Source: a virus | IMG/VR virus record: IMGVR_UViG_3300005939_000012 | Direction: 5' to 3' (one strand) | Length of the DNA stretch: 45,020 nt | Shown here: positions 5,573-44,631 of the stretch, piece after piece | Layout of the letters: every line of letters begins with the position of its first letter | Position numbering within the stretch: position 1 is the stretch's first letter | Notes under the pieces: generated by a model | Databases searched by the model: none | The model's input: the letters and a program-made list of their open reading frames with translations, nothing else | Told to the model about the DNA's origin: nothing | Made by a program: the position numbers and the translations under genes

Positions 5573-5604
5573 ATTTTTTTATCCCAATTATTATTGTTAT
5601 ATTA
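5573..5604 (+). promoter_or_regulatory. conserved phage promoter-like motif (TTTTTTATCCCAA-N8-GTTATATTA)
   Basis: The motif lies upstream of ORF 5621. It recurs at least 10 times in the window. Confidence 0.5.
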
Positions 5605-5620
5605 ATTCAAATTCAAAGAC

Positions 5621-5911
5621 ATGAAGACATTCAATATCAAATACGAAATTCATCTTAAGGATGGAAATGTAATAAAGGATAAGGAAATTAATGTTAAAAA
5701 ATGTGAGTTTGGTGTAGAAGCACAATGCAAGCTTGAAAACTATTTAAAAAAGAAATATCCAAACTTTAAAAAAATAGTAGTAATTTCCTGTAAAGAAGAT
5801 GTAATGTCAATATTTGATGATATGTTTGGAAAAGATGGAGGACCTTTTGGAGATATGTTTAATGGCTTGGGTGATCTTACAGCCGGCGGAGCACCATTTG
5901 GAAAGAATTAA
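5621..5911 (+). CDS. hypothetical protein
   Basis: 96 aa ORF with a Gly-rich C-terminus. Confidence 0.4.
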   Translation: MKTFNIKYEIHLKDGNVIKDKEINVKKCEFGVEAQCKLENYLKKKYPNFKKIVVISCKEDVMSIFDDMFGKDGGPFGDMFNGLGDLTAGGAPFGKN

Positions 5912-5957
5912 AAGAGAATAGGAAAAAAGTTTTAAAAAATCGTAAATAAATAACTAA

Positions 5958-6251
5958 ATGCAGCACCAGTTTTTTCAAGGTTTTGTTCCACAACAAGAAA
6001 TGGTCAAACAAGGCACAAATACGACCCCGGAACTAAAGCACAATGAACTTGTAATGGAGATGTACGCTAATTGGGAATTTGTTATCAAATTAGTGGAAAG
6101 AGCAGTAGGTCAACCAGAAATAAATGTTGATCCCATGGAAATGGACTGGCTTAACTTCATTAACCAAAATAAAATCGATATAAAATCCTACGAAAGTAAT
6201 GAAGATTTTATCGAAAAAAATCTTAAACCGTTGGTTAGAGATAAAAAGTAA
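5958..6251 (+). CDS. hypothetical protein
   Basis: 97 aa ORF. Confidence 0.4.
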   Translation: MQHQFFQGFVPQQEMVKQGTNTTPELKHNELVMEMYANWEFVIKLVERAVGQPEINVDPMEMDWLNFINQNKIDIKSYESNEDFIEKNLKPLVRDKK

Positions 6252-6265
6252 AATTTGAACTAAAA

Positions 6266-6541
6266 ATGAGTGAACCTGTTTTTGTACCAGTAAAAAAAGT
6301 TTTGAGAATTATAAACTCTTGCGAAACTAATGATCAATTAGAAAATTGCGAAAAACTAATTAACAATTATGTTAAACAAGTTAAGAAAAAAGGAGTAGTT
6401 AATCCGGAAATGCTGAAAAAAAGATTAATGAAAGAATACAAACAAAAACAATTTCAATTAAATATGATTAGATCTTTTATACAAAGAGATATTGAGGAAT
6501 TTTCTAAAGAACTTAATAAAGAGATAGTTAACGTAGGTTAG
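6266..6541 (+). CDS. hypothetical protein
   Basis: 91 aa ORF ending in TAG. Confidence 0.4.
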   Translation: MSEPVFVPVKKVLRIINSCETNDQLENCEKLINNYVKQVKKKGVVNPEMLKKRLMKEYKQKQFQLNMIRSFIQRDIEEFSKELNKEIVNVG

Positions 6542-6572
6542 AAAAATAAATTGAAAATAATTGCAAATAAAT

Positions 6573-6603
6573 TTTTTTATCCCAATTAAAAGTATTATAT
6601 TAT
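6573..6603 (+). promoter_or_regulatory. conserved promoter-like motif
   Basis: TTTTTTTATCCCAATTAAAAGTATTATATTA. Confidence 0.45.
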
Positions 6604-6835
6604 ATCAGTAAGTAAAACAAAACAATTGCAACAAGTATTAAAACTTTATATGGTTCGCGCCATATATAATTAAACAACATTATTAAAATGAGAACTTATC
6701 AATCATATCAATCACTTGAACTACTCGAACAGGAATGTTTTGAGCAGTTACCCGAGTATCCATTTTGTGGATCGAGGAGTGGTAGTACTGAAGGATAAGA
6801 TATGAAGAAATAATAAACATATATAATTCATCAAC

Positions 6836-6869
6836 AACCCTCCTGGTATTTACTACGGAGGGTTTTTTT
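6836..6869 (+). terminator. rho-independent terminator
   Basis: CCCTCC...GGAGGG stem followed by TTTTTTT. Confidence 0.75.
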
Positions 6870-42515: not shown

Positions 42516-42519
42516 AATT

Positions 42520-42762
42520 ATGACCCACAAAGAACAAAACGAAAAAATAGCAAACATTTTAGGATTTGTAAAACATCCAGTGAAAAAAGGTACTGGAATT
42601 AACACTCCTCAATGGAGTTATCCAGAAGAATGGAGAAATGAAATACGATCATCGCCTAATACAGAAGTTCCAGATTTCATTAAAATGATTAATGATTCTA
42701 GAGAAATTGCCAAAAAATATGAATATGGATTCCCTCGAATATTTGAAAAGAGGGAATATTAA
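42520..42762 (+). CDS. hypothetical protein
   Basis: 80 aa. Confidence 0.35.
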   Translation: MTHKEQNEKIANILGFVKHPVKKGTGINTPQWSYPEEWRNEIRSSPNTEVPDFIKMINDSREIAKKYEYGFPRIFEKREY

Positions 42763-42813
42763 CAAAAATTTAACAAAACTTGTGCAACAAGTTGTCATAA
42801 AAAGGTTATATTG

Positions 42814-43163
42814 TATCATATATAATATGTAAAAACGTTCTTTATAATATTTTCTGTAGTAAGTATATGCGTTACTTCGTAAACTAAGGCCTCGGCCTTG
42901 ATTATACAATCAGCAAACGATGAATGGGTTTAGGGGCAACCTCTAAACTGGTTTAAAAATCCGCACTCGGCATGATGTAACTCTTCGGAGGAGGCAGAAA
43001 AGGTCAGGAATCTAAGATGGCTGGTAGTAATACACTTAGAACAGTATTGGAAAGTCTGGTTTAATTAAAACTTTCCGTGATCAAAACACTAAATGATCGC
43101 TATACAGTAATCTCAGAAATTTAAAATAAGAAGCTCTATCATTTATTTGGTAGGGCTTTTTTA
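42814..43163 (+). ncRNA. candidate small non-coding RNA (unidentified), -10-like motif to terminator
   Basis: GGTTATATTG lies at 42804. About 340 nt of GC-elevated ORF-free sequence follows, containing hairpins (AAGGCC-TCG-GGCCTT and a CTC-TTCG-GAG tetraloop). It ends in the terminator AGCTCTA...TAGGGCT plus TTTTTT at 43132-43163. Confidence 0.3.
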
Positions 43164-43183
43164 TTTAGATATATAAAATAAAT

Positions 43184-43378
43184 ATGTCATTTTTCTATAA
43201 AAACTTAAAGGAAGATTTTTTCGGAGGATTTGAAGGAAATCTTAGACCAAAACAATATACTGTAGTTGTACAATATATGTCAGGATATCAAAAAGAATAT
43301 CCTTGTATTGAAGCTCCTTGGCAATATATAGCAAAAGTGAAAAAGAATCCAACAGTAAAAAATGCATGGATAAAATGA
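43184..43378 (+). CDS. hypothetical protein
   Basis: 64 aa. Confidence 0.3.
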   Translation: MSFFYKNLKEDFFGGFEGNLRPKQYTVVVQYMSGYQKEYPCIEAPWQYIAKVKKNPTVKNAWIK

Positions 43379-44310
43379 AAGACTTCATCACAATAAAAGA
43401 ATTCACGCGAATTTACGAAAACATTCAACAATCTAAAAAGATTTTGGCTGATAAAGGAAAGGACTCAAATGATCCAGATTATGTTAAACTTAGAAAATTA
43501 ATTGAAAAAACCCCAGGGTTAGCAGGAAAATTTACAGAATGGATGTATTCGGGAACTCCGTTTTGGAAATTAAAAAATGCTCACATGTTCTTTTTAAGAG
43601 CTAAGAATAAAAAAATCAAATTAGGAAATATTGATTCATTTAATTCATTTGAAGAATTTGATAATGATATAAAAGATGGTTTTGAGAAACAATGGGAGAA
43701 TCAATTTACATCAGGAATTAAAAAAGAAGTAAGTGATTTGTTTGATGAAAAAATTTGGAAATTATTAAAAAGCGCTAAATCTGATGATAAAGCAGTACCT
43801 AAATCATTGGAATATGTTAAAAAGTTTTTAGGAACTCATGGAAGAAGATATAAATCATCTAAAGAATTATATGATGTGATTCAAGATGAATTATTGACAT
43901 TTAGAAATATAACAAAAAACGAATATTCTCAATTCTTTTCTAAGTTTAGTGATGAAGATGCTGAAATAGTATTTGAAGATGATAAAAACCTATTAGTTGA
44001 TATTAAAACATTTAAAGCAATGGATGCTGCGAATGAAAATAATATTTTGTCCAGATCATATTGTTTTGGAAATGAGGATGTTTGGTGTAATTTAATCGGT
44101 TCACATGATAATATCCAACAAATGTTTTGGTTTAATTTCAATCTAGATTTCCAAGATGTAGATTCTCTTATAACATATACTGTAGAAGATGGAGAGATTA
44201 CAAGAGTAGGTACTAGATATGGAGAGGTAGAATTTACAGATGATTGGGAAGAATTAAAAGAAATAATAGATGAATTTTTAAAAAAAATTACACAACATGA
44301 AATTAGTTAA
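43375..44310 (+). CDS. hypothetical protein
   Basis: Start set at the ATGA overlap with the previous stop. The tool ORF begins at 43318. Confidence 0.45.
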   Translation: MKDFITIKEFTRIYENIQQSKKILADKGKDSNDPDYVKLRKLIEKTPGLAGKFTEWMYSGTPFWKLKNAHMFFLRAKNKKIKLGNIDSFNSFEEFDNDIKDGFEKQWENQFTSGIKKEVSDLFDEKIWKLLKSAKSDDKAVPKSLEYVKKFLGTHGRRYKSSKELYDVIQDELLTFRNITKNEYSQFFSKFSDEDAEIVFEDDKNLLVDIKTFKAMDAANENNILSRSYCFGNEDVWCNLIGSHDNIQQMFWFNFNLDFQDVDSLITYTVEDGEITRVGTRYGEVEFTDDWEELKEIIDEFLKKITQHEIS

Positions 44311-44575
44311 AGAAAGTTTAAATGAAAAAGTAACATTTAATGAAAAGGTTGACGAACTTTTCATGGAAGAAATTCAAAGGTTACGATCAAATGTATTTAA
44401 GAAATTAAGTGATGACGACTTACAATATTTCATGGGTAAGTTGAGAGATTGGACTATTGATATGGTAGGAGAAAAAGAAGCAAAATCTACTTGGGATGAA
44501 GTACCCCGCGCACCAAGAGGTGGAATGGGTGATGAGGATGTACCAGATTGGCGTGGAAATGAAATGGGTAGATAA
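44297..44575 (+). CDS. hypothetical protein
   Basis: 92 aa. Confidence 0.35.
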   Translation: MKLVKESLNEKVTFNEKVDELFMEEIQRLRSNVFKKLSDDDLQYFMGKLRDWTIDMVGEKEAKSTWDEVPRAPRGGMGDEDVPDWRGNEMGR

Positions 44576-44600
44576 TTTTTTGAAAATAAATGCCAAATAA

Positions 44601-44631
44601 TTTTTTTATCCCAAAACTTTTTGTTATATTA
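44601..44631 (+). promoter_or_regulatory. conserved promoter-like motif
   Basis: TTTTTTTATCCCAAAACTTTTTGTTATATTA. Confidence 0.5.

Follow-up and report, generated by a model that had tools for sequence, protein, structure and literature searches.

The GTTATATTA motif that recurs between the genes of this virus is a real, repeated element. The reading we favour, with some reserve, is that its copies are pre-late (early or middle) promoters built as composite terminator/promoter cassettes in a T4-like huge phage of Bacteroidota, probably of Flavobacteriales. As a kind of element the cassette is ordinary, but its sequence version is so far undescribed: the literature searched, including the paper on the cultured phage MA9V-2, holds no description of the motif.

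A repeated intergenic cassette

Within the window, by which we mean the whole stretch of 45,020 nucleotides that was analysed, GTTATATTA has 9 exact matches against 1.36 expected and the relaxed pattern GTTATWTTR 15 against 5.7 expected. At least 9 and at least 15 matches, respectively, were seen in 0 of 100 dinucleotide shuffles, and the enrichment thus survives a composition-matched background. Twelve of the 15 GTTATWTTR matches are on the + strand and intergenic, with intergenic DNA making up 13.8% of the window; the remaining ones (39357 +, 34659 - and 2953 -) lie within coding sequence and were taken as chance. Profile searches of the window added near variants with the core ATTATATTA at 2146 and 6594 and the core GTTATATTT at 14742, which gives 15 sites in total, all on the + (gene) strand and all intergenic. 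The recurrent intergenic motif of the original prediction is thereby confirmed, and every coordinate given there for boxes and variants proved correct, including 4662, where the core is missing. A profile from related phages alone, which were partly gathered by pattern searches that included the motif, finds 12 of the window sites, scoring 18-41 bits at 10 of the 12 and lowest at 14742 (13.0) and 2146 (10.1); 100 Markov-simulated windows gave no match at E<0.01 and a top score of 11.8 bits. The sites are as follows:

2124..2154, +, weak variant TTTTCT-AATCACAG-N8-ATTATATTA (10.1 bits, E 0.027), core G 30 nt before ATG 2176
5549..5604, +, full cassette, ATCCCAA box, core GTTATATTA, ATG 5621
6547..6602, +, full cassette, ATCCCAA box, core ATTATATTA, followed by 336 nt without a called ORF
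12310..12340, +, T-run, ATCCCAA box, core GTTATTTTA, ATG at core +14
12455..12510, +, full cassette, CGTGTCGA box, core GTTATATTA, ATG 12533
14695..14750, +, full cassette, ATTTGAA box, core GTTATATTT, ATG 14792
15383..15438, +, full cassette, ATCCCAG box, core GTTATATTG, at the head of a ~2.3 kb largely noncoding unit
17716..17754, +, terminator hairpin directly followed by core GTTATTTTA, core G 58 nt before the ATG of an 805-aa vault-protein-like gene
21749..21804, +, full cassette, CGTGTCGA box, core GTTATATTA, just past a hairpin at 21732-21747
25935..25974, +, terminator hairpin AAGCCGAGA-TTTTTT-AGTCTCGGCTT, T-run, GTTATATTA, ATG at core +13, leaderless candidate
27437..27492, +, full cassette, CGTGTCAA box, core GTTATATTA, ATG 27516, then an NAD synthetase gene
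28935..28985, +, 17-pair hairpin then GTTATATTA, pointing into the 3' end of the sole minus-strand gene
32409..32464, +, full cassette, GTCCCAA box, core GTTATATTA, ATG 32499 of a radical SAM gene
42777..42813, +, small hairpin, TTGTCAT box, core GTTATATTG, then a CGTTCTTTATAATATT leader and ~350 nt noncoding
44576..44631, +, full cassette, ATCCCAA box, core GTTATATTA, ATG 44659

The full cassette is ~55 nt long and consists of GAAAATAAATgCCCAAA, a T-run, a 7-8 nt box, 8 nt and then (G/A)TTATATTA. The bipartite arrangement of box and core originally proposed holds, but its extent was understated, as the conserved GAAAATAAATgCCCAAA further upstream makes the element longer than first described. 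The run of 6-7 T sits 17-19 nt before the core TA, at the position of a -33 element with the G of TTTG missing, and the conserved box occupies -29 to -23. Window cores read TATATTA, TATATTG, TATATTT or TATTTTA; T-12, A-11, T-8 and T-7 are present in 15 of 15, T-6 in 1 of 15, and there is no preference for G-5.

At 10 sites the core G stands 13-58 nt before the ATG, never closer than 13; at the remaining five, which mostly have a long noncoding stretch behind them, the distance is 78-722 nt. The distance first suggested was 20-40 nt. Noncoding stretches follow four sites (6594, 15430, 28977 and 42805), and a permissive Rfam scan of the long ones returned no family. The unit behind 15383..15438 contains a CGTTCTTTAAAATATT leader, a GOLLD RNA (15937-16422) and tRNAs. 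An ATG stands exactly at core +13/+14 in three sites, 12332 and 25966 in the window and 2930 in the related contig L048; site 12310..12340 is a candidate either for a leaderless gene or for driving a small SRP-like RNA at 12388-12462. The general setting of the 15 copies in 45 kb is one of small ORFs, tRNAs and homing endonucleases. Co-oriented with genes, intergenic, variably spaced from the ATG, placed in front of noncoding RNAs and conserved as a footprint in orthologous regions, the element acts as one would expect of a promoter, which at the level of sequence supports the promoter-like nature originally proposed.

Hairpins and distribution among phages

A terminator hairpin is found directly upstream of the sites at 17746, 25966, 28977 and 42805 and just upstream of 21796, while at roughly 10 other window sites no stem-loop terminator adjoins or overlaps the element. 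Most window copies are unable to form a hairpin because their CCCAA arms are direct, not inverted, repeats; for the same reason, an explanation of the cassette as an RNA structure was rejected by eye. At 25935..25974, the hairpin loop is the T-run of the putative promoter, and the site keeps a box-like AGTCTCG within the hairpin. A box-agnostic scan gave 28 loci; at many of them, a real terminator hairpin made up of the upstream element and the box precedes GTTATATTA. The hairpin form is present in the relatives L027, L031, L036, L037, L042, L046 and L047 and at sites 41, 125760 and 218453 of MA9V-2.

The same architecture occurs in dozens of uncultured phage contigs. For the IMG/VR contigs L004, L008, L009 and L013 the cassette is the only similarity to the window, and in L018 it lies directly upstream of DNA polymerase and exonuclease genes, in a locus that also encodes DnaB helicase, UvsX and ribonucleotide reductase. 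At the ortholog of site 32409..32464 (L016) the 23-nt block TCCCAAAGTAATTGGTTATATTA from box to core is identical and the T-run conserved, with diverged flanks, and the ortholog of 21749..21804 (L007) retains the same box type. The copies within one genome, L038, are near-identical over ~70 nt. A near-identity DNA search of the window against GenBank phages gave tRNA matches only, and BLAST of the window consensus cassette against the same phages gave chance matches only. The motif is absent from the syntenic 42 kb of the 735-kb phage LR756501, and IMG/VR gave no match to a strict CGTGTCRA-box pattern.

The cultured Chryseobacterium jumbo phage MA9V-2 has about 40 sites, 39 of them on the gene strand and mostly with 28-49 nt between the G and the ATG. 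No shared protein was detectable between this phage and the 78 window ORFs, yet the cassette is common to both. In MA9V-2 the core takes the form TAnnTTT(G/A), the -7 promoter element of Bacteroidota: 37 of 39 cores have TAnnTTT and 12 of 39 the full TAnnTTTG. As the same cassette is found there with such a core, the motif appears to derive from the Bacteroidota -33/-7 architecture and not from a foreign promoter type. The genes behind the MA9V-2 sites belong to replication and accessory functions (topoisomerase, helicase, ligase, a sigma gene); its capsid, sheath and protease genes have no site in front of them and show TATAAATA-like sequences instead.

Proposed promoter architecture and its likely reader

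The host is probably a member of Bacteroidota, Flavobacteriales. Shine-Dalgarno motifs are depleted (5% vs 18% background) and positions -3, -6 and -12 are enriched in A, a pattern of depletion and A enrichment described for Bacteroidetes (PMC6847099), and the TonB-dependent receptor of the window has homologs in Lak and 735-kb Mahaphage genomes. A loose pattern run on bacterial genome contigs gave true sites in 2 of the 120 matches listed, the rest being mostly chance; the two came from Bacteroidota and Flavobacteriaceae MAG contigs, and the bacterial matches listed do not show the composite motif as a promoter in general use by hosts.

Primary-sigma promoters of Bacteroidota have the form -33 TTTG / -7 TAnnTTTG, and T-6 and G-5 are nearly invariant in those of F. 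johnsoniae (PMC6847099). Promoters of this type have their -33 element 19-21 nt upstream of the -7 element and begin transcription 4-5 nt past G-5. The window cores depart from the nearly invariant set T-12, A-11, T-8, T-7, T-6 and G-5 in lacking the last two, and recognition by the host sigmaA is therefore not assured. The original statement that the motif is not a Bacteroidota sigmaA consensus is literally true of the window, but the MA9V-2 cassette has TAnnTTT(G/A) at its core. The canonical TTTG-N18-21-TAnnTTTG is absent from the + strand intergenic DNA of the window, and the window shows no enrichment of TTGACA-N17-TATAAT (55, 79 and 68 found vs 76, 73 and 82 expected). A sigma70 consensus scan misses the sites, which have TTTTTT at the -35 position, in agreement with the earlier view that they do not follow this consensus; the cores do resemble the extended -10 TGnTATAAT, agreeing with its T-15/G-14 in 7 of 15 sites and with 5 of its 6 hexamer positions. 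Canonical Bacteroidota and sigma70 promoters were rejected as an explanation of the intergenic regions, for which these scans do not account.

In the reading we favour, the core GTTATATTA would be read as G-14, T-13 and TATATTA at -12 to -6, a variant of the Bacteroidota -7 element TAnnTTTG that comes near the extended -10 (TGnTATAAT). The T-run (-36 to -30) would take the place of the -33 element TTTG, and GAAAATAAATgCCCAAA, at about -60 to -38, may serve as an UP-like element; in many copies its 5' part and the box pair up as the arms of the hairpin that terminates the unit before. The predicted start point lies 5-6 nt past the last core base, in place of the 7-12 nt downstream first suggested, which would give leaders of 0-45 nt before proteins and put the elements at the head of several noncoding-RNA units, the GOLLD one included. 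An ATG that never comes nearer than core +13/+14 lends indirect support to the predicted start. The likely reader is the host RNA polymerase with its primary sigma factor, as at the early promoters of T4, and the strongly conserved extra elements would let these promoters outcompete those of the host.

It is unlikely, though worth weighing, that a single promoter class requires a phage-encoded factor, in which case the elements would be middle, not early, promoters. The factor could be a sigma with a more sigma70-like region 2/3 reading T-15 G-14 n TATATT, or a MotA-like binder of the -29 to -23 box. Such a factor would fit a core that misses two nearly invariant bases of the host -7 consensus and agrees with TGnTATAAT in 5 of the 6 hexamer bases, a composite motif that is rare in host genomes among the 120 matches listed, and a box that stands where T4 has its MotA box and keeps the form TGTCRA in distant phages. 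Judged by sequence, a box with G and C where host promoters are AT-rich, kept across distant phages, suggests that a protein may be dedicated to binding it. Sigma factors are reported from T4-like jumbo phages of Bacteroidetes (PMC7824862), and MA9V-2 encodes two. However, the phage RNA polymerase or sigma-like genes originally suggested did not turn up between 6.9 kb upstream and 4.5 kb downstream of the window, and precomputed Pfam matches over ~62 kb of a genome of probably several hundred kb gave no MotA/AsiA homolog or candidate factor. The MA9V-2 sigma gp076 was rejected as a shared reader: among GenBank phages its homologs are confined to MA9V-1 and, distantly, phage PAU, and a single-sequence search found no relative in IMG/VR. 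The gp076 gene is itself preceded by one of the sites, a bootstrapping problem for a phage factor. Such a factor also sits poorly with the 12 MA9V-2 sites that are perfect host-type TAnnTTTG and with a cassette common to two phages without a detectable shared protein.

A somewhat slimmer chance falls to the shifted -7 (TATATTA, G-14) and the box reflecting a sigma of the phage's own or a MotA-like sigma appropriator, which would make this a host-orthogonal system with TCCCAA and TGTCRA as two regulons.

Boxes of the TTTTTTATCCCAA type are found at 5575, 6573, 12311, 15407 (ATCCCAG), 32435 (GTCCCAA) and 44601, the CGTGTCGA box at 12485 and 21779 and CGTGTCAA at 27467; the ATTTGAA variant occurs at 14722 and, without a core, at 4662. 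The original prediction took the two boxes for the marks of two specificity factors and two temporal classes. The boxes do exist, they are discrete in the window (six TCCCAA-like and four TGTC-like), the type is retained at orthologous sites, and both types coexist in related genomes. Two promoter classes separated by ATCCCAA versus CGTGTCGA are nevertheless improbable: both boxes share the position (-29 to -23), core, T-run, spacing and upstream element, one degenerate pattern R-T-S-Y-C-R-A covers them, intermediate forms occur (ATTGTCAA, ATATCAA and TGTTTCG in relatives, and AGTCTCG), and in many relatives a terminator arm lies at the box position. The genes behind the two types are alike in kind, with small ORFs, noncoding RNAs and metabolic genes after both. 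A distinct second motif, ATATATAAAATAAA, adjoins start codons and is a better candidate than the box types for another temporal class. The two boxes seem to be alternative sequences for the same position within a single promoter class.

That the elements are terminators and/or recombination cassettes without promoter activity, kept alike by gene conversion, is highly improbable: the hairpin and T-run at 4-5 window sites and in many relatives, the near-identity of the L038 copies and the contigs similar to the window in the cassette only, as known for the cassettes of T4-type phages (PMC4122927), would suit it, but most window copies cannot form the hairpin, the best-conserved part is the -7-like core past the T-run, which a terminator does not need, this core aligns with TAnnTTTG in MA9V-2, and the distance to the ATG has a sharp lower limit of 13 nt.

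Significance and known systems

The favoured promoter reading would provide a promoter model fit for use on the T4-like jumbo/huge phages of Flavobacteriales and other Bacteroidota, a large group with hardly any cultured members. With it, sequence alone could delimit transcription units, noncoding-RNA genes (among them the GOLLD RNA unit) and possible leaderless genes. MA9V-2 on Chryseobacterium indologenes offers a cultured system for determining the start sites and the reader of the box, and the cassettes may serve as strong compact promoters for Flavobacteriia genetic tools.

Among known systems, the long intergenic repeats of halovirus HF2 (PMC8707807) were likewise noticed first as repeats and then shown to be promoters, but HF2 is an archaeal virus with TATA/BRE-type transcription machinery. 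With T4 early and MotA-dependent middle promoters (PMC2988021) our elements share a consensus far longer and tighter than that of host promoters and an upstream A-rich element, with the middle promoters also a box near -30 plus a -10-like element, and the cultured relative MA9V-2 has a separate TATAAATA-like late signal; the host sigma family differs, and the 62 kb inspected hold no MotA/AsiA homolog. The likeness to the Bacteroidota promoter (PMC6847099) lies in T-12, A-11, T-8 and T-7, a T-rich element 19-21 nt upstream, the AT-rich surroundings of -18 and the TAnnTTT(G/A) of the cultured-phage cassette, whereas the window clade has A at -6, no G-5, a nearly invariant G-14/T-13, the G/C-containing box at -29 to -23 and the conserved element at -60 to -38.

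The promoter-early stem-loop (PeSL) cassettes of T4-type phages (Arbiol 2010, PMC2839356; Comeau 2014, PMC4122927) are, like ours, brief and strongly conserved cassettes between genes in which a stem-loop terminator is joined to a promoter; they too occur many times on the gene strand in accessory regions rich in small ORFs, tRNAs and homing endonucleases, and are common to phages with differing flanking genes. In our data the terminator adjoins the putative promoter at some sites, and many near-identical copies with differing flanks lie in an accessory region. Unlike in PeSLs, the promoter half is here of the Bacteroidota type (T-run at -33, TATATTA at -7) and not TTGACA-N17-TATAAT, and in the window clade the hairpin has been lost from most copies, which have direct CCCAA repeats in its place. 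Because many relatives, and 4-5 of the window sites, have a terminator hairpin as their upstream half, the PeSL cassette is the closest known analogue. Our reading would carry the terminator/promoter idea beyond the T4-like phages of proteobacteria, to phages of a phylum whose primary sigma factor is different.

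Structure and placement of the cassette

The core GTTATATTA occurs nine times in the 45-kb window against the 1.36 expected from dinucleotide shuffles, none of which reached nine, and its looser form GTTATWTTR 15 times against 5.7 expected. Twelve of these 15 matches are on the + strand in intergenic DNA, which makes up 13.8% of the window; the remaining three fall within coding sequence and look like chance matches. The repeated core of the original prediction was thus borne out and its upstream boxes lie at the positions first given, but an alignment of the sites revealed that box and core are parts of a longer element than described: tTGAAAATAAATgCCCAAAa, a run of 6–7 T, a box of 7–8 nt, 8 nt ending in TT(T/G), and (G/A)TTATATT(A/G/T). 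Trained on eight sites, a profile found eleven window sites at E<0.02, in every case on the + strand; another, made from related phages alone, found twelve. Neither had a match at E<0.01 in 100 Markov-simulated windows, where the top score was 11.8 bits, whereas ten of the twelve real sites scored 18–41 bits. The enrichment, for which an AT-matched background had been set as the test, holds against both shuffled and simulated sequence. With core variants included, there are 15 sites, located by their first core base: 2146, 5596, 6594, 12332, 12502, 14742, 15430, 17746, 21796, 25966, 27484, 28977, 32456, 42805 and 44623.

All sites have the same orientation as the genes. At ten of them the core G is 13–58 nt from the next start codon, and the distance never falls below 13; ATG is at +13/+14 at window sites 12332 and 25966 and at one site in the related locus L048. 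Downstream of sites 6594, 15430, 28977 and 42805 are long stretches without a called ORF, site 15430 heading a unit of ~2.3 kb that holds GOLLD and tRNAs. Site 12332 lies upstream of a 75-nt SRP-RNA-like sequence whose terminal T-run adjoins the next site, and a terminator-like hairpin is found directly 5' of four window sites. In the orthologous intergenic region of one relative (L016), there is full identity over the 23 nt from box to core, and the T-run is kept too, the flanks having diverged; the ortholog in another (L007) keeps a CGTGTC-type box. Separately, we observed that a 131-nt leader, 21805–21935 (+), separates promoter site 21796 from a NUMOD3 homing-endonuclease gene and has a nearly identical counterpart in L007, whose coding genes are only about 72% identical to the window; the leader holds a hairpin, CCAGG..CCTGG, and a two-codon mini-ORF.

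Six window sites have TCCCAA-like boxes and four TGTC-like ones, the rest having hairpin arms or other variants. The two box types noticed originally are real, but their assignment to two specificity factors found no support, because both occupy the same position in an otherwise identical cassette, are covered by one degenerate pattern, are connected by intermediates in relatives (ATTGTCAA, ATATCAA, TGTTTCG and AGTCTCG) and precede the same kinds of gene. It also counts against two classes that the box takes the form TGTCRA across the family and that TCCCAA is particular to the window clade.

Distribution among uncultured and cultured phages

The exact pattern TTTTATCCCAA-N8-GTTATATTA was found in 15 IMG/VR loci, some 65–80% identical to parts of the window and others having the cassette alone in common with it, and these loci carry extra cassette copies with other boxes. 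The related locus L018 has copies immediately 5' of its DNA polymerase and exonuclease genes and also encodes DnaB helicase, UvsX and ribonucleotide reductase; two further loci (L009 and L012) encode topoisomerase II, a possible clamp loader and a DNA helicase. A scan with the box unspecified, AAATAAWT-N9-TTTT-N18-GTTATATTA, gave 28 loci on many other phage contigs of 25–250 kb. In many of the 28, a genuine terminator hairpin is formed, with the "upstream CCCAAA element" as one arm and the "box" as the other, for example GGCCAAAC-ATTTTTTT-GTTTGGCC-TTTTTTT-GTTATATTA, and window site 25966 is exactly of this type. Some of the others have nnTGTCAA or GGGTCAA as the box. Oddly, the former hairpin arms are direct repeats of CCCAA in the window clade. 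Among the matches listed from a scan of bacterial genomes, 2 of 120 were true cassettes, and they are probably phage DNA, since both are on small contigs assigned to Bacteroidota or Flavobacteriaceae MAGs.

The cultured Chryseobacterium phages MA9V-2 and MA9V-1 contain intergenic DNA that matched one site from the box-unspecified scan. An iterated profile search of the whole MA9V-2 genome gave 40 sites, all but one on the gene strand, with the consensus tttGAAAATAGTTGCnAAAAtnTTTTCAtATGTCgwAAA-N5-(C/A)TTAwATTT-(G/A)yAtATAAttAAAA. Of 39 cores, 37 contain TAnnTTT, and 12 have the complete Bacteroidota -7 element, TAnnTTTG. No common protein was detectable between MA9V-2 and the 78 window ORFs, yet the cassette is common to both. 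The MA9V-2 sites are upstream of topoisomerase, helicase and ligase genes, one sigma gene and many small ORFs; none precedes the capsid, sheath, prohead-protease or neck genes, which have upstream sequences resembling TATAAATA, the T4 late-promoter type.

Gene content, further motifs and noncoding RNAs

All window genes but one are on the + strand, and the GC content is ~31%. The RNA genes comprise about 20 tRNAs, an amber-suppressor tRNA and a GOLLD RNA, and the proteins include NAD-salvage functions, several homing endonucleases and the products listed below.

Selected genes of the window
3051–4601, +: Band_7/SPFH protein, 516 aa
7543–17193, +: about 20 tRNA genes among homing-endonuclease genes
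10157–10936: DUF559 homing-endonuclease gene, within the tRNA region
11547–12308: NUMOD3 homing-endonuclease gene, within the tRNA region
17804–20221, +: 805-aa protein with major-vault-protein domains (PF11978 MVP_shoulder; PF17795 Vault_3, weak)
23630–23703, +: amber-suppressor tRNA, anticodon CTA (ARAGORN label tRNA-Pyl)
37616–39574, +: TonB-dependent receptor (Plug and beta-barrel), homologs in the 735-kb LR756501 and Lak phages

The tRNA region contains duplicates (3 Gln, 3 Glu, 2 Phe, 2 Tyr and 5 Leu), and some ORFs overlap the tRNA predictions. The CTA-anticodon tRNA suggests that TAG is recoded in other parts of the phage genome, which has been reported for phages of the Lak type. The vault-like protein is identical on four contigs from different samples.

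The best phage matches of the TonB-receptor and NadR-like genes are in uncultured huge phages of 735 kb and 634–642 kb, those of the receptor also including Prevotella Lak phages. These phages belong to the Mahaphage clade, with predicted Bacteroidetes hosts (PMC7162821), which has been grouped with T4-like phages that encode sigma factors and no RNA polymerase of their own (PMC7824862). Before 78 window starts, Shine–Dalgarno motifs are depleted (5% against 18% in the background) and A is enriched at -3, -6 and -12, a signature described in Flavobacterium johnsoniae (PMC6847099). Together with the Mahaphage-type matches, this start-region signature makes a Bacteroidota host well supported.

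Further motifs and RNA features of the window
8793, 17399, 21915, 30391, 40702 and 43167, +: second motif, (G/A)AATATATAAAATAAA, 0–10 nt before start codons
29693, -: second motif, before the sole minus-strand gene
4668 and 6915: weaker copies of the second motif
7707, 14997, 15459 and 42836, +: third motif, CGTTCTTTAAAATATT, with a variant at 29004
12388–12462, +: small SRP (4.5S) RNA-like sequence, 75 nt, with GGAA loop and AGCA motif
15937–16422, +: GOLLD RNA (Rfam RF02032, 154.7 bits against a gathering score of 150)
16011–16080: tRNA embedded in GOLLD

The second motif is very conserved, also precedes homing-endonuclease genes and is present in nearly every related locus, with many copies in L005–L017; MA9V-2 has none. 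Resembling the T4 late promoter, it could be a T4-late-like promoter giving leaderless or near-leaderless mRNAs, or a translation signal. The box variants are weaker candidates than this motif for a second temporal class.

The third motif lies ~20 nt past the core at three sites and opens the ORF-free stretches 7705–7881, 14996–15507, 15459–15936 and 42836–43183. Those at 7707 and 42836 run on alike, as TCTGTAGTAA..GC.TACTTCG..TAAAACTA.G.CC. The stretches have no match in Rfam and have the look of unannotated noncoding RNAs that form one family with a common 5' leader. The GOLLD-bearing unit is largely noncoding from site 15430 to a terminator at 17716–17748. The SRP-like sequence, flanked by two promoter sites and ending in a T-run, scored 25.2 bits, under the gathering score of 40 (E 0.002 in a local search).

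Proposed promoter geometry and the probable reader of the cassette

When the window core is aligned with that of MA9V-2, it would read as G-14 and T-13 followed by TATATTA (-12 to -6). The place of the -33 element TTTG would be taken by the T-run (-36 to -30), with the box at -29 to -23 and the upstream element at approximately -60 to -38. Transcription is predicted to start 5–6 nt past the core, which would fit the hard lower limit of 13–14 nt to ATG in both the window phage and MA9V-2. The statement that the motif is not a Bacteroidota consensus is literally right, as T-6 and G-5, nearly invariant in F. johnsoniae promoters (PMC6847099), are missing; its sequence nevertheless clearly points to a derivative of that architecture. 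The core resembles an extended -10, T-15 G-14 n TATATT, just as closely. The + strand intergenic DNA of the window contains no canonical Bacteroidota promoters, and sigma70-type promoters are not enriched in the window, so the cassette is the dominant promoter-like signal of the region. We found no published description of the motif in the literature; its promoter activity, start-site position, timing and sigma factor are what we infer here.

Phage-encoded polymerase or sigma-like genes, proposed as a check of the prediction, were absent from the 62 kb inspected around the window. MA9V-2 encodes two proteins of relevance.

Sigma-related proteins of MA9V-2 (OR513085.1)
62344–63507: 387-aa protein with sigma70 region 2 only, near the N-terminus, and a long C-terminal part without assignment
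157215–157622: 135-aa gp55-like protein

We favor reading by the host RNA polymerase with its primary sigma factor, as T4 early promoters and PeSL cassettes (PMC4122927) suggest by analogy. The architecture is common to phages without accessory genes in common, and one MA9V-2 site in three has a perfect -7 element of the host type. Further reasons are that the sigma gene of MA9V-2 itself sits behind a cassette site, that this sigma has no homologs past MA9V-1 and phage PAU, and that the 62 kb inspected contain no sigma or polymerase gene. A phage-encoded sigma factor or MotA-like activator is a serious alternative, as two key positions of the window-clade core differ from the host consensus, the box is not AT-rich and true cassettes are scarce among the matches listed from the bacterial scan. 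The cassette is best explained as a family-wide pre-late promoter, often fused to a terminator, and as a Bacteroidota-phage counterpart of PeSL, the terminator/early-promoter cassette of T4-type phages.
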